Source: Planctomycetota bacterium
GTDB taxonomy: Bacteria; Planctomycetota; UBA11346
NCBI GenBank assembly: GCA_038213805.1
Contig: JBBQSO010000104.1
Location: 1-17,537 of the forward strand
Reading direction: 5' to 3'
Length of the DNA stretch: 17,537 nucleotides
Position numbers and translations under genes: made by a program. A model generated the notes under the pieces. That model saw nothing but the letters and a program-made list of their open reading frames with translations, searched no databases and was not told the origin of the DNA. This document shows positions 2,393 through 15,806 of the stretch, in pieces. Every line of letters starts with the position of its first letter. Within the stretch, counting starts at the first letter, position 1.

Positions 2393-4384
2393 ATGACCGC
2401 TTTCCGCACCCCGCTGCTCACCCTCCTTGCCCTTGCCGCCCCGCTCGCGTCCCGCCTTGGTGCGGTCGAGCACGAGCACGATCGGCCCTTTCTGCACCCG
2501 CTGTTCAGTGATCACACCGTTCTGCAGCGCGACATGCCGGTGCCGGTGTGGGGCTGGGCGGCGCCAGGCAGCGTGGTGACGGTGGCGATGAACGGTGCGC
2601 AGGGTACGGCCACTGCCGCAGCCGATGGTCGCTGGACGGTAAAGGTCGGACCCTTCCCCGCCGGCGGTCCGTACACCATGACCGTGACCGGTGCGGTCAC
2701 GGTGACGGTCACCGATATCCTGATGGGCGACGTGTGGATCTGCTCCGGGCAGTCGAACATGGAGATGGGCATCGGTGCCTGCAATTATGACGACGAGATC
2801 AAGGCGGCCGAACACCCCGATATCCGTCTGCTGACCGTGCCACGCAAGGTCGCCAAGGAGCCGACCTACACCGCCGACCTCACCTGGCTGCCCTGCCATC
2901 CCGACACCGTCACCAAGGGCATGTGGAGCGGCTTCAGCGCCGCGGGCTACTTCTTCGGCCGCGAGCTCAACCGTGAGCTCAAAGTCCCGATCGGCCTGAT
3001 CCACACCTCGTGGGGCGGCACCATCGCCGAGGCATGGACCAGTGCCGAGGGCTTGGCCAGTATGCCCGACTTCGCCGACCGCCTGGCCCAGGTGGTCGCT
3101 GCGCGCAGCGTGCCCGAGGACGAGTACGCCAATCAGCTTGCCACCTGGTACAAGGCCAACGACCCCGGTACCGGCGCCAACTGGGAAAAACCCGGCACCG
3201 ACGTCAAAGACTGGAAGGACATCGCGGTGCCCAAGCCGTGGGAGCAGTCCGGCGTGCCCGGCTTCGAGACCTTCGACGGTGTCGCCTGGTACCGCCGCGA
3301 CTTCGACGCTCCGGCCGACTGGGTTGGTAAGGATCTGGTACTGAACCTCGGCCCGATCGACGATATCGACACCACCTGGGTCAACGGCCAGCCGGTCGGC
3401 AGCGCGGAGCGCTACGACATCGCGCGCACCTACACCATCCCGGCCAAGCTGGTGCGCAAGGGCCGCAACTCCATCGCCGTGCGCGTGCTCGACACCGGCG
3501 GCCTGGGCGGCATCTGGGGCAAGCCGGAGCAGCTCTCCGTCGGCCCCGCCGGCGTTCCGCCGCTGCCCCTCGCGGGCACCTGGAAGATCAAGGACAGCAG
3601 CACGCTGGCCAAGCTCGGCGCGCCGCCGTCGCGCATCGACAGCAGCAACCCCAACGTGGTGACGGTGCTCTCCAACGGCATGCTCGAGCCCATCGTCCCC
3701 TACGCGGTCAAGGGCGCGATCTGGTACCAGGGCGAGAGCAATGCCGGCCGCGCCTGGCAGTATCGCACCCTGCTGCCGGCGATGATCACCGACTGGCGCA
3801 CGCGCTTCGGCTGCGGCGATTTCGGCTTCCACATCGTCTCACTGGCCGGCTTCATGAAAAGCGCGCCGCAGCCCGGCGACAACGATTGGGCCGAGCTGCG
3901 CGAGGCGCAGGCGCTGACCGCGAAGCAGCTCAAGAACTGCGGTCTCGCCCTGGCCATCGATATCGGCAACGCCGACGACATCCATCCCAAGGACAAGCGC
4001 GAGGTCGGCCGGCGCCTGGCGCTCAGCGCGCTCGCCAATACCTATCACCAGGCGGTGGAGTGGTCGGGCCCATGGTACGCCAAGATGGACGTCGAAGGCG
4101 CGAAGATCCGCCTGCACTTCGACCACCTCGGTGGCGGGCTGGTGGCCAAGGGCGACAAGCTGACCGGCTTCGCCATCGCTGGTGCAGACCACGTCTTCAC
4201 CTGGGCCGACGCGCAGATCGACGGCGACACCGTGGTGATAAGCGCCGCCGCGGTCGCCGCCCCCGAGGCGGTGCGCTATGCCTGGGATGCGAACCCGGTG
4301 TGCGACCTGTTCAACAAGGCCGGCCTGCCGGCGGTGCCGTTTCGCACCGACGACTATCCGGCGCGGACGCGCGACGCGAAGTGA
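2393..4384 (+). CDS. Sialate O-acetylesterase family protein (split SASA/SGNH domain with inserted galactose-binding-like beta-sandwich)
   Basis: Motifs LFSDHTVLQRD, GDVWICSGQSNM (catalytic Ser), FSAAGYFFGREL, WGGT, GAIWYQGESN and DDIHPKDK (DxxH). The insert has FDGVAWYRR, LGPIDDIDTTWVNG and NSIAVRVLD. Start set at ATG 2393, which begins a signal peptide (MTAFRTPLLTLLALAAPLA), rather than 2237. Confidence 0.92.
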   Translation: MTAFRTPLLTLLALAAPLASRLGAVEHEHDRPFLHPLFSDHTVLQRDMPVPVWGWAAPGSVVTVAMNGAQGTATAAADGRWTVKVGPFPAGGPYTMTVTGAVTVTVTDILMGDVWICSGQSNMEMGIGACNYDDEIKAAEHPDIRLLTVPRKVAKEPTYTADLTWLPCHPDTVTKGMWSGFSAAGYFFGRELNRELKVPIGLIHTSWGGTIAEAWTSAEGLASMPDFADRLAQVVAARSVPEDEYANQLATWYKANDPGTGANWEKPGTDVKDWKDIAVPKPWEQSGVPGFETFDGVAWYRRDFDAPADWVGKDLVLNLGPIDDIDTTWVNGQPVGSAERYDIARTYTIPAKLVRKGRNSIAVRVLDTGGLGGIWGKPEQLSVGPAGVPPLPLAGTWKIKDSSTLAKLGAPPSRIDSSNPNVVTVLSNGMLEPIVPYAVKGAIWYQGESNAGRAWQYRTLLPAMITDWRTRFGCGDFGFHIVSLAGFMKSAPQPGDNDWAELREAQALTAKQLKNCGLALAIDIGNADDIHPKDKREVGRRLALSALANTYHQAVEWSGPWYAKMDVEGAKIRLHFDHLGGGLVAKGDKLTGFAIAGADHVFTWADAQIDGDTVVISAAAVAAPEAVRYAWDANPVCDLFNKAGLPAVPFRTDDYPARTRDAK

Positions 4385-4397
4385 TGGGCGCCTCGAC

Positions 4398-4790
4398 TCG
4401 AATCCTCCCCCGATTCTGCGTACGGGTGGTTACGCGGCCTCGGCCTGCTGGAGATCGACGTCCATCGGGATGAGGTTGCCGATGGAGGTGTGGCGAATGG
4501 TCTTGTTGGAGCAGTACTTCCGTGTACTCGAAAATGTCGCTCTGAGCTTCAGCGCGAGCCTGGAAATCGCGTCGGTGGATCACCTCGTTCTTCAGCGTCT
4601 GCCAGAAGCGTTCGGCGACCGCGTTGTCGTAGCGGCAACCGCGCCGATTGATGCTGGCGACCATGCCGTTGGCATGGAGCACGGTGCGATGGTCGTCACC
4701 GGCATACTGGCTGCTACGATCGCTCTGGTGGATAAGGCCGGGCTTGGACTGGCGATCAGCGCTCGCCATGGCAAGCCATCGAAAACGTCT
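4398..4790 (-). mobile_element. Degenerate IS3-family remnant: frameshifted OrfB (rve integrase core) C-terminus plus right terminal IR
   Basis: The minus strand encodes PGLIHQSDRSSQY..GMVASINRRGCRYDNAVAERFWQTLKNE..AQSDIFEYTEV, matching IS3 HHSDRGSQY/DNAVAESFF. After a frameshift near 4512 it reads NKTIRHTSIGNLIP..QQAEAA-stop (4430-4432). This is followed by CCCGTACGCAGAATCGGGGGAGGATTCGA, which resembles an IS3 right end. The left limit of similarity is approximate. Confidence 0.88.
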
Positions 4791-5518
4791 GCCGATACCA
4801 CTTGGCGCCAAGTCCGGTCGATTATTTCCCCGCGATCGCAAATCGCCAATCGGACGTTTTTCAGAGCGGCATGATCAATGGGCAGCATTGGTAAAAGCGG
4901 ACTCTGCGTGAAAATGAGTCATGGTAGGCAGCGACTGCCCGAGAAGGGCAATGGCTGCATAAGCGCAGCCTTGCCGGCAACATCATTGCAATCAGTGCAC
5001 TCCAGGGCCAGTCCCAAGAACAGTCATGCTCCGCCGCGAACACACTTACAACGACGGGCACCGGAAATTTCCGGACTATAAGCCCCGCCGTTCCGGAGTA
5101 CCGACGATGATTGGGAAATGGATATCGGCATGGCCGCCGAACCAAAGGTTTGCTGCAAATGCCATTAGCCAAGATTTCGTCCCGGCTACACATTTTTTTC
5201 CACGGCGCATCAGCGGCAGCGATATCCAGCAATTGCCACAGCCGTCGCCTGCTGGACGCGAATCACCGGCGACATTTCGCGGAGGTCGTTGCCCGGATGC
5301 ACACGTTGGGGAAGGAATTCTGCGATGTGTGGGCAAAGTGCCAGGCGCGAAATTATTTGCCCAACCGGGGATAGGCGTCAAAGTGCCCGGAAACGTTCGA
5401 ACAACGAGCGTCCGGAATAGTCATCGTACACTCTTGGGAACATGACTATCATGCACATGCTCATGTTGTTCAATATCCACTGTCGTGCCCAACACCCATC
5501 ACCAGGGTTGGTAATTCC

Positions 5519-6481
5519 ATGAACTATCTGCTGGCGCTCTTGGTCCTCTGTCTGATCAATGCCCAAGCGAATACGGCAGAGGGCAAGCTGCTGAAGGTCT
5601 TCATCCTGGCGGGCCAATCGAACATGGAGGGCCAAGGAGTCGTCGATCTCACAGGCGCGGACTACAACGGGGGCCGCGGGACGCTAACCGCGCTCATGAA
5701 CGATCCGGTCAAGGGTGCGAGATATGGGCACCTTAAATCTTCGGACGGGAATTGGGCCGTCCGTGACGACGTGTGGGTTTGGTATCAGCGTGAAAACGCG
5801 CCGCTGCTCGCGGGGCCTTTGTCTCTTGGATTCTCAGTCTACGGTGATCGGCATCATTTTGGGCCTGAGTTGCAATTCGGCCACGTGATTGGCGAGGCGA
5901 TGGCGGATCAAGTCCTGATCATCAAGACTGCATGGGGTGGCAAGAGCCTGAACGTCGACTTTCGTCCGCCGAGTTCAGGCGGAACGGTTGGTCCGTACTA
6001 CAACCGGATGATCCAGGACATCCAGGTAGCGCTGGGATCGCTGAAGAGGACATTCCCGTCCTATGATGGCAGGGGATACGTGATCGCAGGATTCGTATGG
6101 TGGCATGGCTGGAATGATTATGTCGATGAAAAGGCGGCGATGAATTATGGACAGAATCTTACGAATCTGATCAACGATGTCCGTAAAGATTTGAAGGCGC
6201 CTAAGCTACCGGTGGTGATCGGCGAACTGACCGGACCCTGGGCCAAGGAATATAGTGGCCTTCCCGCTTCGGCGCTGGCAATCAGAAACGCCCAGCTCGC
6301 GGTGTCGAAACGGGATGAGTTTTTGGGGACGGTAAAGTTTGTCGAGACCAGTTCATACGTACGCAAGTCGACAGAATCTCCCAATCCTGGCCATGGCCAC
6401 CACGAATTCGGAAATGCAGAAACGTATTTCCTGGTCGGCGACGGTCTGGGCGAAGGCATGAAGGATTTGCTCAAACCATGA
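5519..6481 (+). CDS. Secreted SASA/CE6-like carbohydrate acetylesterase
   Basis: Signal peptide; KVFILAGQSNMEG (catalytic Ser), HFGPELQFG, LIIKTAWGGKSL..DFRPPS, GFVWWHGWND, LPVVIGE, GHGHHEFGNAETY. Confidence 0.88.
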   Translation: MNYLLALLVLCLINAQANTAEGKLLKVFILAGQSNMEGQGVVDLTGADYNGGRGTLTALMNDPVKGARYGHLKSSDGNWAVRDDVWVWYQRENAPLLAGPLSLGFSVYGDRHHFGPELQFGHVIGEAMADQVLIIKTAWGGKSLNVDFRPPSSGGTVGPYYNRMIQDIQVALGSLKRTFPSYDGRGYVIAGFVWWHGWNDYVDEKAAMNYGQNLTNLINDVRKDLKAPKLPVVIGELTGPWAKEYSGLPASALAIRNAQLAVSKRDEFLGTVKFVETSSYVRKSTESPNPGHGHHEFGNAETYFLVGDGLGEGMKDLLKP

Positions 6482-8964
6482 TTTATTTGCAAATATCACT
6501 AATTAAAAAGGTTATTTTCTATGCAATCGCATTGTTGGCTCTTGTGTCGCTCATCCAAATAGCGGCATCGGCAAGTGAATCTCCCCCAGATCTGACGCAT
6601 ACCCAGCTGGTCGATCGTGAGCGCACCTATAATCTCGGCGCCACTGGTCTGCGCGGTTGGATCTACACCAGGCCGGAGACCTACTTGGACAGCATCCAAG
6701 GGCGGACCACAGCGGTGAGCCGACAAATATTGGTCACCCATGTTGGAGCGAAATCACCATCGGATGGCGTCTTGCATGTCGATGACGTGATTCTGGGTGT
6801 TGATGGAAAGTTGTTCTCGGACGATGCGCGAAAAGGCATCGCCCTGGCAATCCAGGACGCAGAGAAACAGGAGAACGGCGGAATCCTGAGGCTCACGTGC
6901 TGGCGCTCTGGAACAGTCAAGGAGGTGAACATTAAACTCCAAGTTATGGGAACCTACAGCGATTCAGCGCCCTACGGCTGCGCGAAATCCAAAAAAATCT
7001 TTGACGAGGCGTGTGCCGTGCTGGCGCATGAACCGCTGCAGGAAAACTGGAATGGCGCGATAAACGGCTTGGCGCTGATGGCGTCAGGAAATCCTGAATA
7101 CCTGCCACGCGTGCGTGATTTCGCCCACAAGATTGGACCCACTACCTTGAATCTGACCGCGCGTGAAGGAATGGTGATATGGGACTGGGGATACCGATCT
7201 CTATTCTTGTGCGAATATTACCTGCTAACTGGCGATAATGAGGTGTTGCCTGCCATCACCACATACACGGTCACATTGGCAAAGGGGCAGAGCATGTACG
7301 GCACCTTTGGTCATGGTGTCGCGCTGCCCACCGCTGATGGCAAGCTGCATGGATCGATTCCTCCTTATGGGCCGGTCAATGAAGCGGGATTGATTGGCAA
7401 TCTTGCTATTGCCTTGGGTAGGAAATGCGGCGTCAGGGAACCCGAGGTTGAGGATGCCATGGTACGGGCATCTTCATTCTTCGGGTATTACGTCGACAAG
7501 GGCGCTATCCCCTATGGCGAACACGAACCGTGGCCCTATCACGAGAACAACGGCAAAGGCTCCATGGCGGCCATGCTTTTTTCTGCCCAAGGACGGACCC
7601 TTGAGGCGCAGTTCTTTGCCAAGATGGCGACAGCTGGCTATGCGAATCGCGAGATCGGCCACACCGGCCAGGGCTTCAGCTACCTGTGGAGTGCGTTGGG
7701 CGCGAACGTGGGCGGACCGGCTGCGACGGCGGCATTTTTCAAGGAGGCATCATGGCATTTTGATCTGGTGCGGCGCAGCGACGGATCGTTCACCTATGAT
7801 GGGGGCGAACAATACGGCCCTGGGAAGACTGATGACAACACCTATTATGGGAAAAGCGGTTACTATGGGTTGAGCCCAACGGCTACCTATGTACTGACTT
7901 ACGCGCTGCCACTTAAGAAGATCTTTATCACGGGCAAGGAATCCGTTCAGTCGACTTGGCTGAGCAAGAAAGATGTGGCAGACGCTATCGCCTCTGGCCG
8001 TTTCGATAGTGAACGCACCAAAATGACTCCGCAGCAACTGATCGCTGCATTCGCTGATTGGTCGCCCATTGTCCGTGGCTGGGCAGCAGAGGAACTGGCC
8101 CGCCGGCCAGAGGCGAAGGAACTGATTCCGCAGCTCATCGCCATGGCGGACTGCAAGGACGCACACCTCGAACAGGGTGCTTGCGAGGCGCTCGGTCTGC
8201 TCAGCAGCGTCGAGGCTCTCCCCGTCCTGGTGCGCAATCTTGCACATAAAGATCGATGGGTGCGCTACAAGGCGGCGCAAGCGATCAGAAGAATGGATGG
8301 TGCGGCCAAGCCGGCCCTGGCGGAGATCCTCAAGGCGATTGTAGCAACCGCAGAGCCGCTGCAGCCGATCATGTGGGCCGATCCTATCCAGTTGGCGCAT
8401 GGCCAGCTGGCCGCCGCGTTGTTTCAGGGGCAATTGACGAGCGACCTCAAAAACATCGATCCGAAGTTGCTCTACCCGGCGATCCGTGTGGTGTCACACA
8501 ACGCGGATGGCATGGCGCGGGCGACTCTGAAGAGATTTTTCGAGCGCGAGCTGTCGCCTGAGGACATGGACGCCCTCGCCCCCGACATTCTTGCTGCCGT
8601 CAAAGAGCGCGCACCGGCCGATACGATGTTCGGCAATGAGATCCGCATGGGCGGATTCAAAGCGCTGACCAAGTACAAATACCGAGAAGGAATAGAAATG
8701 GGCGTCCTGTTGGCCATGACGCAGGGTGGTCATGGCAGCGAAGTCCGGACAGGAGAAATCATGAAAGAGATCGTCGCATATGGTTCGGCGGCAAAGGTCG
8801 CCATTCCGGGCTTACTTGAAGTGATTGCGATGTTCAACCAGCAATGCGCACGGAACGAATTTCCCGCTGGGGACTTGAATGACCGTCGGGTCAACGCAAT
8901 CAGGGTGGCCATCAAGGCCATTCAGGCCGCCTCTACTCAGCCAGCCATGAAGTCGATCAAGTAG
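6478..8964 (+). CDS. DUF6288-like protein: signal/TM anchor, PDZ domain, alpha-helical core, HEAT repeats
   Basis: 828-aa ORF overlapping the esterase stop (ATGA). Contains YNLGATGLRGW, a PDZ-like ILVTHVGAKSPSDGVLHVDDVILGVDG, a core with HENNGK/GHTGQGFSYLW/RRSDGSF, and HEAT-like repeats (DWSPIVRGWAAEEL, GACEALG, DRWVRYKAAQAI). Family name recalled, not searched. Confidence 0.8.
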   Translation: MIYLQISLIKKVIFYAIALLALVSLIQIAASASESPPDLTHTQLVDRERTYNLGATGLRGWIYTRPETYLDSIQGRTTAVSRQILVTHVGAKSPSDGVLHVDDVILGVDGKLFSDDARKGIALAIQDAEKQENGGILRLTCWRSGTVKEVNIKLQVMGTYSDSAPYGCAKSKKIFDEACAVLAHEPLQENWNGAINGLALMASGNPEYLPRVRDFAHKIGPTTLNLTAREGMVIWDWGYRSLFLCEYYLLTGDNEVLPAITTYTVTLAKGQSMYGTFGHGVALPTADGKLHGSIPPYGPVNEAGLIGNLAIALGRKCGVREPEVEDAMVRASSFFGYYVDKGAIPYGEHEPWPYHENNGKGSMAAMLFSAQGRTLEAQFFAKMATAGYANREIGHTGQGFSYLWSALGANVGGPAATAAFFKEASWHFDLVRRSDGSFTYDGGEQYGPGKTDDNTYYGKSGYYGLSPTATYVLTYALPLKKIFITGKESVQSTWLSKKDVADAIASGRFDSERTKMTPQQLIAAFADWSPIVRGWAAEELARRPEAKELIPQLIAMADCKDAHLEQGACEALGLLSSVEALPVLVRNLAHKDRWVRYKAAQAIRRMDGAAKPALAEILKAIVATAEPLQPIMWADPIQLAHGQLAAALFQGQLTSDLKNIDPKLLYPAIRVVSHNADGMARATLKRFFERELSPEDMDALAPDILAAVKERAPADTMFGNEIRMGGFKALTKYKYREGIEMGVLLAMTQGGHGSEVRTGEIMKEIVAYGSAAKVAIPGLLEVIAMFNQQCARNEFPAGDLNDRRVNAIRVAIKAIQAASTQPAMKSIK

Positions 8965-9687
8965 GTGATTGTCGGTGGGTTGCTCTGGTGCAGGACCACG
9001 CCGACGTCGATGTCCACCTTCATGTCCTAATTAGACTATGTGCCCCTAGGACGCCACACCCCATCGCCGTCCTGGCTCTGGCTAGGATCGGCGTCTTGAT
9101 CGTCCGGTTGTTGTGGACCTATGGGGTCCCACGTGCCGCACATGCACCCTCCGCACCTAGTTTAACGGCCGCACAATTTCCCTTTGGGGTACCACGGTTA
9201 CGGTGTCTGAGATACATTTGCCGGCTAAAAAACACGCTTCGCCTACAGCGCATGCCGGTGCGCGCCCGGCTCAATTTCCGCGACGTGATCGCCATGGAGG
9301 TCGCGGCGTTGACCATGGTCGGGTCACCGACCATCCCAGCCTGAACCGCGGGCCCGACTGGAATGCGACGTCATTGAGGTAGCGACCGCCACAGCGCCGT
9401 GTTGAGCGGATTTCATTCGCTCTCATGGTTTATTGCGGACGGATACTCGTCGCACGCTGGATCCTGCGCAGCGCCCCAGGCTCATGCTCGATCGGTGCCA
9501 TCAGCCACTGCCAGATACCCCGCAGTGTCTGGAAGCGCTGGCGACGTGGTGCGCGGCCGATCACGGGGCGCAAGATCTTAAGCAGGCTCTTGGGCGCGGT
9601 CGACGAGGTCAGGGCGGGCATGGCACGGCTCCAATAGGGTTTCTATGAACCCTCATAGGCCAAAACCGACACTGTGTCAATAACAAC

Positions 9688-11121
9688 CTATTCTAAAAGT
9701 CGTCCCAGGTGGGCGCAGGCCTCTTCGCTGAGATGGCTGCTGCGGTTGAGCGTGAGTCCGATGCGCAGCCCTTCCTGCACCACCTGCCTCTCGAGGTAGT
9801 CGTTCGAGGGTGAGTTGGGCGGCAGCCCGAAGATCGCGAAGCGCAGATCCCCACCCGCGAACACTGGCGAGTCGCCGAGCTGGGCGAGGCGCGCGCGCGC
9901 GGCGCCGGCCAGGCCCATCGCCAGCACGTCCATCTGCGAGTACTCGCCTTCCATGCCCTGGGCGTTGAGCGCGAACTCGACCGCGACGCGGCTGCGGTAG
10001 CCCCCCTGCATCAAGTGAGGACCTGAGAGCAGCGGCAGGCGCATCTCCTGGAGCTGCCGCAGCAGCAGGAAGTCGTCGTTGTAGGTGGCGATGCTGACCC
10101 GACCGCCCGGGAAGGGCCAGCGCGAGAGCAGCGGCGTGCGGCCGTCGCAGTAGAGGTAGATGAAGGCGAGGTTGGCGAGCGCCGCGATCGGCTGGACCAG
10201 GGTCACGCCGCCACGCTCGAGGTGGCCAAGGATGCCGGGAGGCAGCACCAGGCTGATGCGCCGCCAGTGACGGCGCGCCTCGGCCGCCACGCTGAAGGCC
10301 TGGGTCAGCACCTGCCAGGGATTCGACGAGCCCTCGACGGTGGCGGTGAAGTTGCTGCCGCGGCGCGCGTCGTCGAGGCCGTCGACCCACAGCCGGCCGC
10401 GCGCATACAATGCGATCACCTGGCTCGGGTAACCCTCGGCCATGCTCAGCTGCTCGAGCACGCCGCGCCCGCAGCGCATCACCGCCTGGTGACCGTCGCT
10501 GGCCGTGGCGGAATAGGCGCGCACCTGGGCGCGTTCGAGACGCAGCGGCGCGCGCTCGGCGGCCAGCGAGTGCATCCCGCAGCGCACCAGCGCGGCGTCG
10601 ACCAGGCTGAACAGCAGCGGCACGGCGAGTTCGGTGAGAGAGGTGTCGGCGAGGGTCGCCTCGACTTGGAGGATGGCCTCGGCGGCGGCCTTGGGCGGCA
10701 GGCCGTGGCGCTCGACCAGCAGGGACTCGAGCCAGCCTCGTTCCCAGGCGCGCCGGCGGCCCTCGAGGTCGAGCACCACCAGGTTGGGCGCGCCCGCGCT
10801 CTCGCCACCCGCGCCGCTCAGGCGGCGCGAACGCCGGAAGCGCTCGCGCGCGTCGCGGTAGCGGGCGTAGGCGATGGCGACCTCGTAGTTGCCGCTTTCG
10901 TGCAGCACGTGCACCACCGCGTCCTGGATGTCCTCGATGCCGAGCGCCGCCTGGTCGCAGGAGCGCTCGAGGTGCTCGATGACCACCCGCGCCAGCTCCG
11001 CCGCCAGGGCCTCGTCGTCGATACCGACGGCCTGCTGGGCGCGCAGGATGGCGTGCCCGATGCGCGCGTCCTCGAAGGGCACCTGCTGCCCGTCGCGCTT
11101 CACCACCGCGGTCGGCCTCAC
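9688..11121 (-). CDS. Tandem ATP-cone protein with a degenerate class III ribonucleotide reductase (NrdD)-like core; probably catalytically inactive
   Basis: ATP cone aa 1-95 ([40 protein letters not shown]) and a second cone-like unit at aa ~114-183. NrdD-like [30 protein letters not shown] start overlaps the nrdR stop; no C-terminal RVxGY. Confidence 0.8.
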
Positions 11122-11591
11122 GGTTTGGCCCGTTGGTTCTCGCCGATGACGCGGCGCAGCTCGACCATGAACTCGTCGAGGTCCTTGAACTGGCGGTAGA
11201 CCGACGCGAAGCGCACGTAGGCGACCTGGTCGAGCTTGTGCAGTTCACCCATCACCAGCTGGCCGATCAGCGTCGAGGCGACCTCGCGCACGCCCTCGCC
11301 GAGCAGCTGCTGATGGATGCGGTTGACCGCGGCCTCGAGTTCGGCGCTCGGAACCGGGCGCTTCTCGCAGGCGATGAGCATGCCGTGGAGGATCTTGCGC
11401 CGGTCGAAGCTCTGGATGCGCCCGTCCTTCTTGATCACGCGCAGCGCCTCTTCGCCCTCGACGCGCTCGTAGGTGGTGAAGCGCTTGCCGCACGGGTTGC
11501 AGGCGCGCCGCCGGCGGATGGCCGTGCCGTCGTCGGTGGCGCGGGAATCGATCACCCGGTCATCGTCCTGGTTGCAGAAGGGGCAGCGCAA
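11118..11591 (-). CDS. nrdR: Transcriptional repressor NrdR
   Basis: [31 protein letters not shown] zinc ribbon, ATP cone [34 protein letters not shown] start preceded by GGAG. Confidence 0.97.
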
Positions 11592-11707
11592 CGAGCTCTC
11601 CGGAATCCGCCGGGCTGGGGCGGGGAGGCTGACTGTAGACGGGACGCGGTCGGTGCAAGGCCGCGGCGAGCGCTGGACGGGGCGGCATCACCTCCACCAT
11701 TGCAGTC

Positions 11708-13702: not shown

Positions 13703-13857
13703 TCATCCACACGGCTTCGGGTGCTTGGCTGCGCGTGCAGCCTTGCGCCATGAATGACTGCGGATAGCGGCGGAGCTGACCGCGGCGCAGGTAAGCCTTC
13801 GGCAAGGGTGGCGAGCGGTACCGCCCCAGCGTGCGCTCTTCATCCACACCTTGCACA
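13703..13857. promoter_or_regulatory. DnaA-box-like motifs
   Basis: TCATCCACA at 13703-13711 and 13840-13848 (1 mismatch to TTWTNCACA); 2-mismatch variants CCTTGCACA (13849-13857) and, inverted, TGCGGATAG (13759-13767). Confidence 0.4.
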
Positions 13858-13893
13858 GCCTGGAGGGAATGGCCGGCCGCCACTGGCGCCGTG

Positions 13894-13920
13894 GCAAACA
13901 CCGCTACCCCGGGATGCGTA
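13894..13920 (+). promoter_or_regulatory. Putative ECF sigma-dependent promoter
   Basis: GCAAAC (13894-13899)-N17-CGTA (13917-13920) fits the general ECF 'AAC...CGT' consensus; it lies 22 nt upstream of the thioredoxin ATG. Confidence 0.55.
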
Positions 13921-13942
13921 TCAATGCGTGAGCACCACCGCC

Positions 13943-14374
13943 ATGCGCATCCCGATCGCCTCTCTCCTCGCCATCTTCACGGCGGCCCTCCTGGGAGGCT
14001 GCGCGGAAGACGGCGCGACCGCAGGCGGTGCGGGGGCGCCAGAAAAGGCGGTGGTGCACATCACCAGCGTGCAGCAGTTCGACACCCTGGTCGCGGCCAG
14101 CACCACGCCGCTGATCGTCGACTTCAACGCCTCGTGGTGCCCGCCGTGCAAGCAATTCGCCCCGGTGCTGGCGCGCTTCGCCGCTGACCATGGTGGCGCG
14201 GTGACCGCGCTCTCGGTCGACGTCGACGAGGTGCGCGAGCTCGGCATGCGCTACCGGGTCGAGGCCCTGCCCACGGTGGTGCGCCTCGACCACAGCAAGG
14301 AGGACGCACGCTTCGTGGGTGCCAAGGGTGCTGAAGACCTCGACGCCTGGTTCGCCAGCGGGCGGTCCCCGTGA
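13943..14374 (+). CDS. Lipoprotein thioredoxin
   Basis: Lipoprotein signal MRIPIASLLAIFTAALLGG|C; LIVDFNASWCPPCK active site; cis-Pro loop VEALPT. ATG 13943 preferred over 13754. Confidence 0.9.
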   Translation: MRIPIASLLAIFTAALLGGCAEDGATAGGAGAPEKAVVHITSVQQFDTLVAASTTPLIVDFNASWCPPCKQFAPVLARFAADHGGAVTALSVDVDEVRELGMRYRVEALPTVVRLDHSKEDARFVGAKGAEDLDAWFASGRSP

Positions 14375-14451
14375 GCGCCTGGGCGCTCGCCGGGCCGGGT
14401 CGCACCGGGTTCCTTGTTGCCGGGCTCGTCCGGGCGCGGCAGGCTCCCGCC

Positions 14452-15024
14452 ATGCCCGAGCCCGTGCAGACCACTGCTTCCGACGCGGCAGGCGCGCAAC
14501 TCGCGCGCTTCGCCGCCGGCGACGAGCAGGCGTTCACCGAGCTGGTGGGTGACCACCAGCAGGCCGCCTACGTGACCGCCTGGCGCGTGCTGGGCGATGG
14601 CGAGGCCGCCCACGACTGCGTGCAGGAGGCCTTCCTGCGCATCCTGCGCCACCACGCGGACTACCGTGCCGGCCAGCCGTTCCGCCCATGGCTGCTGCAC
14701 ATCGTGCGCAACCTCGCGATCGACGCGCTGCGCCGGCGCCGGCGCTTCGCGCATCCCGACAGCCTGCACGCCCTGGCTTCCCCCTCGACCCCCTCCGCCA
14801 TGGAGGGCATGGAGCTGCGCGTGCGCGTCGCCGAGGTGCTCGATGAACTGCCGGCGAAATACCGCGACATCATCGTCATGCGCGAGATGGAGGGCATCCC
14901 CGCCGAGGAGATCGCCGCCCACATCGGCGTCGACTACAGCACCACGCGCTGGCGCCTGCACCAGGCGCGCCGCCTGTTCCGCGAGGCCTGGCTGGCGCGC
15001 TTCGGCGCGGAGGACGCGCCATGA
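14452..15024 (+). CDS. ECF (sigma-70 group 4) RNA polymerase sigma factor
   Basis: GDEQAFTELV, AHDCVQEAFLRI, FRPWLLHIVRNLAIDALRRR (region 2); LDELPAKYRDIIVMREMEG..EEIA..STTRWRLHQARRLFR (region 4). An alternative GTG start at 14371 overlaps the thioredoxin stop. Confidence 0.93.
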   Translation: MPEPVQTTASDAAGAQLARFAAGDEQAFTELVGDHQQAAYVTAWRVLGDGEAAHDCVQEAFLRILRHHADYRAGQPFRPWLLHIVRNLAIDALRRRRRFAHPDSLHALASPSTPSAMEGMELRVRVAEVLDELPAKYRDIIVMREMEGIPAEEIAAHIGVDYSTTRWRLHQARRLFREAWLARFGAEDAP

Positions 15025-15806
15025 CCCTTGAGCCCGACATCGATCTGCGCCACGCCGCCGCCGACCATGCCGCCGGCGATCTGCCCCCGGCCGAGGCCGC
15101 GGCCTTCGCCCGGCTGCTCGTCGACGATCCGGCGCTGCAGCGTGAGGTCGCGTCCTGGAGCGCCTTCCAGTCCCGGCTCGCCACCGGAGTTCCGGATGCT
15201 GCGCATGCGCCGGGCCCCGAGTTCGCCCGTGAACTGCTGCGCCGCCGCCACGACCGCGCGCAGCGCGCCATCGCCATCCCCATGCCGCGCTGGTTCGCGG
15301 CGGCAGCGGCGGCGGGTCTGGGCGTGCTCATCGGTGCCTTCGCCGTGCCGCATGCCCGCGCGCCTGCGGATGCGGGGGTGGTGGCCTTGCAGGACGACGG
15401 CACCGGTGCAAGCGCACCGGCTGCGGCGACCCGTCCGCCGGTGCGTCTGGCCAGCACCGATCGCGTCCGCACCAGCGGTGACGACCCGGCGCGGCTCGCT
15501 GCCACCGGCGAACATCCTTGGATCGGCCTGTGGACGCGCCTGGTGACCCTCGACGAGGGAACCACGCATGCTCGTCATGCCCATCTGGTGGTGCGCATGG
15601 TTTCCGGCAGCCCTGCGAGCGCGGCGGGGATCCATGCCGGCGATGTCATCCTGAGCGTGGACGGCGTCGCCGCCGATCAGGAGCAGTCCCTGGCGCGCGC
15701 CCTCGCCGCGCATCGTCCTGGCGAGATCCTCGCCATCGAGTGCTGGTGCGCGATCAACGAGCATACCAACCAGCACCGCGTTACGGTGGGCAAGGTCTAC
15801 GAATAA
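15021..15806 (+). CDS. Transmembrane anti-sigma factor with C-terminal PDZ domain
   Basis: ATGA overlap with the sigma gene; anti-sigma-like N-terminus (DHAAGDLPPAEAAAFARLLVDDPALQREV); TM helix WFAAAAAAGLGVLIGAFAV; PDZ PWIGL..VVRMVSGSPASAAGIHAGDVILSVDG..HRPGE. Confidence 0.82.
   Translation: MTLEPDIDLRHAAADHAAGDLPPAEAAAFARLLVDDPALQREVASWSAFQSRLATGVPDAAHAPGPEFARELLRRRHDRAQRAIAIPMPRWFAAAAAAGLGVLIGAFAVPHARAPADAGVVALQDDGTGASAPAAATRPPVRLASTDRVRTSGDDPARLAATGEHPWIGLWTRLVTLDEGTTHARHAHLVVRMVSGSPASAAGIHAGDVILSVDGVAADQEQSLARALAAHRPGEILAIECWCAINEHTNQHRVTVGKVYE

Follow-up and report, generated by a model that had tools for sequence, protein, structure and literature searches.

An inert, shortened descendant of the anaerobic ribonucleotide reductase NrdD is encoded together with nrdR in Planctomycetota and may act as an accessory of the NrdR system

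A stretch of 17,537 nucleotides (nt) from a Planctomycetota bacterium (contig JBBQSO010000104.1), hereafter the window, was analyzed with a focus on the open reading frame (ORF) of 477 amino acids (aa) that directly follows nrdR on the minus strand. The encoded protein (P0001; 9688..11121, stop codon included) descends from NrdD, the class III ribonucleotide reductase (RNR), but is catalytically inert as an RNR and devoid of radical machinery, and its family is kept under purifying selection. Because the catalytic residues are all lost, nucleotide sensing or a regulatory aid is probable, rather than the synthesis of DNA precursors. The reading that we favor, with about even confidence, is that this inert NrdD descendant would assist the NrdR system by sensing nucleotides. 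As for the original prediction, made from the DNA letters, its structural and evolutionary part is upheld, the protein being NrdD-derived, shorter than any NrdD, without radical machinery, under purifying selection and tied to nrdR.

The 477-aa ORF is a genuine coding frame with host-like codon usage. This is illustrated by a G+C content at third codon positions (GC3) of 0.92, next to 0.93 for nrdR and 0.93 for the ClpP gene of the window. The preceding gene (11118..11591, minus strand, TTG start) encodes a repressor of 157 aa made of a Zn-ribbon (PF22811, aa 1-42) and an ATP-cone (PF03477, aa 51-137), identified as NrdR by TIGR00244 (E 9.6e-58; 194.4 bits for a cut-off of 124.65). The TGA stop of nrdR and the GTG start of the 477-aa ORF overlap by 4 nt, GTGA (11118..11121, minus strand), in the context ccGTGAggc of the window sequence. 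ORF calls, the overlap and the codon usage thus agree with what had been proposed, namely an intact frame whose GTG overlaps the nrdR stop.

P0001 consists of a canonical ATP-cone, a degenerate second cone and a 273-aa domain without Pfam match. The first cone (aa 5-93, 10843..11109, minus strand) matches PF03477 with an E-value of 8.4e-17 and 61.9 bits for a cut-off of 25.8, and carries a VVKRDG hairpin in which, among 57 aligned family members (alignment A1), R9 and G11 are invariant and K8 and D10 are conserved in at least 90%. The second cone (aa ~113-200, 10522..10785, minus strand) has a hairpin without the nucleotide-binding Lys-Arg pair (VLDLEGRRR), and no Pfam ATP-cone match was obtained when aa 105-205 were scanned alone. 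Its predicted topology, a hairpin followed by helices, repeats that of the first cone, with which it aligns in register, albeit weakly (hhalign E 0.0015, probability 17%). Besides, the counterpart regions of three relatives (P0135, P0137 and P0177), delimited by BLASTP alignment, exceed the PF03477 cut-off of 25.8 bits, with 28.5-32.2 bits. From the repeated topology, the register and these scores, the second cone can be considered as real but degenerate. Hence, of the double ATP cone that had been proposed, the first copy is canonical, whereas the second stands in a degenerate form that Pfam does not match by itself.

The remainder of the protein (aa 205-477, 9691..10509, minus strand) corresponds to a shortened RNR/NrdD-type alpha/beta barrel domain, a predicted assignment supported by AlphaFold2, by Foldseek and by 38 invariant columns. 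No Pfam family was matched by aa 205-477 scanned alone, and sequence searches against Pfam, NCBIfam and the PDB, with the single sequence as well as with a profile, returned matches confined to the first cone. In particular, the NCBIfam NrdD models align only to aa 4-99, with 46-67 bits for cut-offs of 548-764, and PF13597 (NRDD) was matched neither by the whole protein at E<=1 nor by aa 205-477 at E<=10. The protein has no PF22811 or TIGR00244 match either, and thus no NrdR Zn-ribbon DNA-binding domain. Within the barrel domain, the segment aa 322-331 (10129..10158, minus strand), with the invariant C325-D326-G327-R328-T329, forms a family signature that was used as search pattern. It is followed by a vestigial finger-loop region (aa 364-380, 9982..10032, minus strand), placed by the inferred strand order, and then by strand F with N386; the protein ends with a C-terminal helix (aa 466-477, 9691..9726, minus strand) carrying the invariant C469 and H471.

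The descent from NrdD was established through distant relatives, collected by a filter-only HMMER scan of 1.84 billion representatives without length restriction. Among the 1333 matches at E<=1e-3, just four are full-length representatives of the 477-aa family. The next tier (E 1e-23 to 1e-11) is made of proteins of 600-810 aa, at most ~35% identical, which align over the N-terminal part only, i.e., query aa ~5-255 and in some cases up to 320-349. An ATP-cone was present in all 72 next-tier relatives scanned. PF13597 was matched by 6 of the first 12 at E<=1e-3, 4 of them above the cut-off, and by 33 of the other 60 at E<=1e-5, while 27 of these were not matched. Direct comparison of the query with a PF13597-positive relative by BLASTP gave 35% identity over aa 6-254 (E 6e-28). 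Then, A1 was aligned to a profile of 19 double-cone NrdD-like relatives (alignment A2) by profile-profile comparison, which extended the similarity to aa 7-310 (hhalign probability 99.95, E 1e-38), a span covering both cones, the helical linker, strand A, helix A and strand B. In this alignment, strand A of the 477-aa protein (RGRLWVDGL) is the counterpart of the GDIHxHxL-type strand, which reads GDIHLHGLG in the relatives. The N-terminal NrdD landmarks recognized by eye in the original prediction thus reflect true homology. For the C-terminal ones (FAIFGL, GLTLNRS...), a relaxed profile alignment of aa 305-477 with A2 was colinear, as had been proposed, but by sequence it is not significant (E 0.052), and this part is carried by structure. 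According to the same relaxed alignment, the 477-aa family stops ~150 columns before the full-barrel relatives. As a lead only, features from a protein atlas returned NRDD clusters in 29 of 30 matches, with scores of 0.90-0.91.

Structure prediction provided the evidence for the barrel. The whole protein, modeled by AlphaFold2 with the family alignment, reached a mean predicted local distance difference test (pLDDT) of 92.8 and a predicted template modeling score (pTM) of 0.78. Foldseek comparison of this model with the PDB gave 73 matches at E<=1e-3 and all those listed were RNR subunits, i.e., alpha chains together with the ATP-cone-bearing NrdB 5olk. The top match was the two-cone NrdA of Pseudomonas aeruginosa (5im3; E 1.6e-11), ahead of class III enzymes (E 1e-7). 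TM-scores over whole chains were 0.27-0.37, low values that are expected because the model is multi-domain. The barrel was therefore assessed apart from the cones, aa 205-477 being folded alone with 32 sequences from the window and the related loci (pLDDT 91.6, pTM 0.85). With this model, Foldseek ranks 1 to 14 were all RNR, headed by the cone-less NrdD of Thermotoga maritima (E 1.5e-5; query TM-score, TMq, 0.47-0.54); TMq was 0.58-0.62 for T4 NrdD, 0.61 for S. thermophilus NrdD and 0.55 for a class Id alpha subunit, while TIM-barrel enzymes ranked lower, with TM-scores of 0.21-0.24. The similarity to RNR therefore goes beyond the cones, both in the hhalign span and in the isolated barrel, a point on which the original prediction had staked its refutation. 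Secondary structure assignment by DSSP found ~8-9 strands after the cones in the predicted models, to be compared with ten strands in the barrel of RNR and pyruvate formate-lyase. In these models, the first seven or eight strands, approximately, of the RNR barrel appear to be kept and its last part to be lost.

The loss of the catalytic apparatus is observed at each of its expected positions. No member of A1 carries a Cys in the finger-loop region (0/57 at aa 364-378). There, the finger hairpin preceding strand F has a tip reading G367-P-H-L-M-Q-G-G, G367 being invariant, and position 375 is occupied by Tyr in 30 sequences, Trp in 24 and His in 3. In the loop after strand A, a Cys occurs in 2/57 sequences at position 253 and in 1/57 at position 260, and in at most 2/57 at any position from 250 to 262. 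The counterpart of the NrdD 'NC' position had been located at GSNF (aa 255-258); transitive alignment moves it to approximately T259-A260, and the active-site Cys is absent at either placement. The only invariant Cys residues of the family are C325 and C469, while the strand-F Asn, N386, is kept in 54/57. The C-terminal four-Cys Zn site and the glycyl-radical loop are missing in all 57 aligned members. P0001 itself ends at aa 477 and therefore stops, as had been claimed, before the metal site and the glycyl-radical domain. The double-cone relatives of A2 appear disarmed as well. In their profile, the MGCRS finger loop of S. thermophilus NrdD falls in an insertion and its TNCC motif is aligned to non-Cys residues. 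Neither at the finger loop nor after strand A is a Cys conserved in these proteins (P0135-P0230, 713-811 aa), the Zn/glycyl-radical tail is absent in 16 of the 19, and one of them is named 'ribonucleoside-triphosphate reductase (formate)' by one source. Counts of active class III RNRs may wrongly include such Cys-less, PF13597-positive double-cone proteins.

To delineate the family, a word-indexed search was run over 5.8 billion proteins with admitted lengths of 262-835 aa. It retrieved 130 relatives at E<=1e-3; the 120 listed measure 305-491 aa and share 48-97% identity with P0001, so that no full-length active NrdD, another outcome that would have spoken against the original prediction, is found among its close homologues. 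Precomputed domains consist of PF03477 alone in 117 of the 120, the other three being short fragments. The listed relatives are named 'ATP cone domain-containing protein [Planctomycetota]', 'hypothetical protein' or 'transcriptional regulator NrdR family protein'; the 'NrdR family' label of some sources comes from the ATP-cone alone. The clusters to which ten relatives belong were named 'hypothetical', 'ATP cone domain-containing protein' and, once, 'ribonucleoside-triphosphate reductase (formate)'. No fusion of NrdR with the barrel was present among the 120, in a search range that would admit its ~634 aa. The length of ~470-490 aa is kept down to 43% identity.

Conservation is concentrated in the barrel. 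A1 has 55 invariant columns, 38 of which lie in aa 205-477, 15 in the first cone and 2 in the second-cone segment. Family motifs include RGRLWxDGLDDPxRGS, LSGPHL, ALNAQGLEGE and RFAIFGL as well as a C-terminal motif. The ratio of nonsynonymous to synonymous substitution rates (dN/dS, Nei-Gojobori) was 0.020-0.126 in nine pairs with at least 90% aa identity and 0.17-0.32 in five more divergent pairs, dS being saturated in one pair. It was comparably low across the first cone, the second cone and the barrel, with 0.013-0.07 for the barrel in close pairs. A 98%-identical copy from a metagenome-assembled genome (MAG), L001:6001-7450, bears a frameshift near aa 112, in the inter-cone linker, and continues in another frame. 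Since an intact, 97%-identical protein (P0003) exists, the simplest view is that the assembly is wrong at this place or that the lesion is private to this copy.

The linkage with nrdR was analyzed in 43 loci (43-99% identity) recovered by a scan of one genome per species. All of them are labeled as Planctomycetota, some as Kuenenia or Brocadiaceae, except one MAG labeled 'bacterium'. nrdR was found immediately upstream and on the same strand in 39/39 loci with upstream DNA; in the other four, the contig begins within the gene, and they were left out of this count. Its stop overlaps the following start in 35 of the 39 loci. The overlap amounts to 4 nt in 25 loci, to 11 nt in four, to 23-29 nt in another four and to 1 nt in two, and the remaining four loci show gaps of 7 nt in two cases and of 154 and 175 nt in the two others. 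From this arrangement, the 477-aa protein is predicted to be always co-expressed with NrdR, usually by translational coupling. Homologues are thus of similar length, lack the Cys, sit behind nrdR and evolve with dN/dS below 1, which is the pattern that the original prediction had anticipated. Apart from nrdR, no neighbor is common to all loci, a divergent solute-binding gene being found in 12 of them. No RNR domain and no radical-SAM domain, as expected of an NrdG activase, was detected in 103 neighbor ORFs of the related loci (~6 kb on each side). Seven loci, the closer relatives of the window among them, form a cluster in which the ATP-cone gene is followed, 270-560 nt further on the same strand, by a gene for a nucleoside diphosphate kinase, confirmed by PF00334 (E ~1e-55) in L002:3821-4306 and L004:7978-8487. 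This gene is absent from the window, where a low-GC island takes its place. In 8 more divergent loci, a third gene of ~250 aa without Pfam match begins -4 to ~+50 nt after the ATP-cone gene (L011:7470-8165, L018:1084-1833, L022:7421-8170, L034:7431-8165, L037:2040-2738, L038:3172-3936, L039:7503-8273 and L041:7467-8225). The C-terminus of its product carries an invariant, Zn-ribbon-like CxC...CxxC arrangement with a weak PDB likeness to eS27 (E 0.85). The window lacks such a gene.

The function proposed for the 477-aa protein, be it that of a (d)NTP sensor, of a partner of NrdR or of a dominant-negative regulator of RNR, would rest on gene linkage and domain content. NrdR itself offers the framework, since its ATP-cones pair within tetramers, octamers and dodecamers, the ATP/dATP load setting the oligomeric state and DNA binding, as described in PMC9110341. 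In the reading that we favor, NrdR and the 477-aa protein would be translated in a coupled manner from one mRNA, and the first cone of the latter would read ATP/dATP, as do the cones of NrdR and NrdD. Depending on the nucleotide, either the oligomeric state of the protein or its contact with NrdR would change, and such a change would tune the repression of the true RNR genes elsewhere in the genome. This could proceed through mixed cone contacts with NrdR, or through a second nucleotide signal conveyed by the vestigial barrel, the central surface of which is highly conserved. The nucleoside diphosphate kinase gene downstream in seven loci was taken as support for the nucleotide theme. Nucleotide binding, contact with NrdR and the regulatory outcome are steps that we infer.

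Several observations weigh against this reading. Its two central steps, nucleotide binding and NrdR contact, are presumed, and the overlap of the genes speaks for co-expression, not for binding. The conserved polar residues of the barrel (H300, E302, C325, D326, R328, T329, D350, C469 and H471) would also fit catalysis. The view of the genomes covers the loci with ~6 kb on each side, any active RNR genes and their NrdR boxes lying outside it. Two distant members (L038:1673 and L039:6001) carry NRS or NRQ in place of KRD in the first-cone hairpin, so that canonical ATP/dATP binding may not be family-wide. Upstream of the operon formed by nrdR and the 477-aa gene, no NrdR box was matched. Indeed, when a 16-bp consensus was compared with the 270 nt that precede nrdR in the window and in each of 39 related loci (L037 contributing 169 nt), the best sites reached 7-10 of 16 matches, none above 200 shuffles (lowest p 0.1); a printed consensus was not found in the available part of PMC12051234. 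Prediction of a complex between the 477-aa protein (A1) and NrdR (A4) gave a score of 0.00 in two runs made without controls, a result that weighs neither way.

Other explanations have to be considered. Tighter association is possible, although we give it limited credence: the protein may be an obligate, stoichiometric partner of NrdR in ATP-cone oligomers, where a second nucleotide signal, read by the vestigial barrel, would enter the repression of RNR genes. In that case, it would be the first RNR pseudoenzyme of a bacterium with a part in transcriptional co-regulation, and the tip of a wider, unrecognized clade of double-cone NrdD-like proteins that are Cys-less and mostly without the glycyl-radical tail. 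It is also conceivable, but unlikely, that the protein is still an enzyme, maybe metal-aided and regulated by the ATP-cone, whose chemistry on nucleotides or other compounds is non-radical, a view that draws on the conservation of the barrel. The pocket residues H300, E302, C325, D326, R328, D350, N386, C469 and H471 are conserved, the 38 invariant columns of aa 205-477 compare with only 2 in the second cone and include many typical catalytic or metal-binding residues, the invariant residues sit at strand ends and loops of the predicted barrel, and the dN/dS of this domain falls to 0.013-0.07 in close pairs. However, RNR is the sole enzyme family with similarity in Pfam, NCBIfam, PDB and Foldseek comparisons, and the barrel is incomplete; to our knowledge, no RNR-fold protein with non-radical chemistry has been described.

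The protein could instead be an inert partner subunit for an active RNR encoded elsewhere, NrdD or of another class, bound through helix A and helix B, with an allosteric or dominant-negative effect, a view that we find rather improbable. Helices A and B form the dimer and specificity-site interface of RNRs, and few segments of the family are as well conserved as the one aligned to NrdD-like helix A, strand B and helix B (NPWQVL...). Yeast offers a model for such a subunit, its inactive Rnr4 pairing with Rnr2. The neighborhoods point elsewhere, as the invariant genomic partner of the 477-aa gene is NrdR and no RNR, and an RNR catalytic or activase domain occurs in 0/103 neighbor ORFs (53 + 50 scanned). 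Finally, a recently truncated or decaying nrdD pseudogene that is still open would account for a protein shorter than NrdD and deprived of catalytic residues, and for the frameshift in the near-identical copy L001. It is nonetheless extremely improbable, with a length kept at ~470-490 aa, dN/dS far below 1, a GC3 of 0.92 and a conserved coupling to nrdR. Recent truncation of nrdD is excluded by the homologue lengths, the 43-locus scan and dN/dS.

The 477-aa protein was then compared with known systems. With class III NrdD (PF13597; 1h79, 4con, 8p23 and 9d3x), it shares the N-terminal ATP-cone, the linker, the first barrel strands, the predicted barrel fold of aa 205-477 and the strand-F Asn (N386), whereas the PF13597 match, the finger-loop Cys, the post-strand-A Cys (at most 2/57), the Zn site and the glycyl-radical motif are lacking. 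It is also ~150-270 aa shorter than NrdD, the last part of the barrel being gone, and no activase gene was seen nearby. With NrdR (TIGR00244), it has the ATP-cone in common (NrdR cone against the first cone, hhalign probability 90%, E 1.6e-6), but it is three times longer, bears an RNR barrel and has no Zn-ribbon or known DNA-binding domain. The class Ia NrdA of P. aeruginosa (5im3) likewise has tandem cones of which the first alone looks canonical, and its second ATP-cone is not known to bind nucleotide; unlike the 477-aa protein, it works as a class I reductase, its barrel being complete and its catalytic cysteines present. The nearest outside relatives are the metagenomic double-cone NrdD-like proteins of 600-810 aa (A2 and similar), which are also two-coned and, in the A2 set, without conserved Cys at the finger-loop and post-strand-A positions, but have a full-length barrel, match PF13597 in 33/60 scanned and are at most ~35% identical.

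Co-transcription of nrdR with an ATP-cone-bearing gene of the RNR family is found in Streptomyces coelicolor, the nrdRJ promoter of which is named in PMC9110341. In that system, the partner is an active class II reductase, in contrast to the inactive class III derivative described here. Catalytically inactive RNR homologues are represented by Rnr4 of yeast and the R1 homologues of betaherpesviruses. Besides, an 'NrdD-like paralog (no NrdG)' of Chloracidobacterium appears in Table 1 of PMC12816986, the nearest mention found in the literature and a possible parallel. These proteins are precedents for members of the RNR family without RNR catalysis, or NrdD-like without activase; they differ by having no link to NrdR and no such shortened architecture. 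We know of no inactive RNR homologue that is an NrdR-coupled bacterial protein, and full-text literature searches found no paper on an NrdR-coupled NrdD-like family. No relevant pseudo, inactive or truncated forms are mentioned in the accessible part of PMC9531940.

In most bacteria, deoxyribonucleotide synthesis has NrdR as its master repressor, and the known mechanism of NrdR involves NrdR itself and ATP/dATP only. If our favored reading is true, this circuit would gain a component that derives from a disarmed reductase and is always translated along with NrdR. An ancient radical enzyme would have been turned into a sensor. The larger NrdD-like set, annotated as 'anaerobic ribonucleotide reductase' or hypothetical, matters for the inference of RNR repertoires and oxygen lifestyles from genomes.

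Concerning the rest of the window, the intergenic region between nrdR and the divergent SBP_bac_5 gene (11592..11707, no strand assigned) is presumed to contain the promoter, although a promoter scan found no sigma-70-like site in 11592-11707 on the nrdR strand. Rfam, tRNA, promoter and terminator scans gave no relevant match, and none of the 11 other ORFs of the window encodes ribonucleotide reduction, RNR or radical-SAM domains. The remaining genes encode a family-5 solute-binding protein, a thioredoxin, an extracytoplasmic function (ECF) sigma factor, a PDZ anti-sigma factor, ClpP, sialate-esterase-like proteins and a DUF6288 protein. The G+C content of the window is ~0.68-0.73 outside one stretch of ~0.55 (about 4500-9000). 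This low-GC block (4392-9446), which adjoins the operon downstream, has a GC3 of 0.63-0.65, compared with 0.86-0.93 for the flanking genes, and comprises an integrase-core (rve) fragment (4311-4841, minus strand), a SASA esterase (5519-6481) and a DUF6288/HEAT protein (6478-8964). In the related MAG locus L003, the same flanks are separated by just 756 bp, so that the block looks like an inserted island. On the other side of the operon, a thioredoxin, an ECF sigma factor and a putative PDZ anti-sigma factor are encoded in tandem at 13754-15806, with starts and stops that all overlap.

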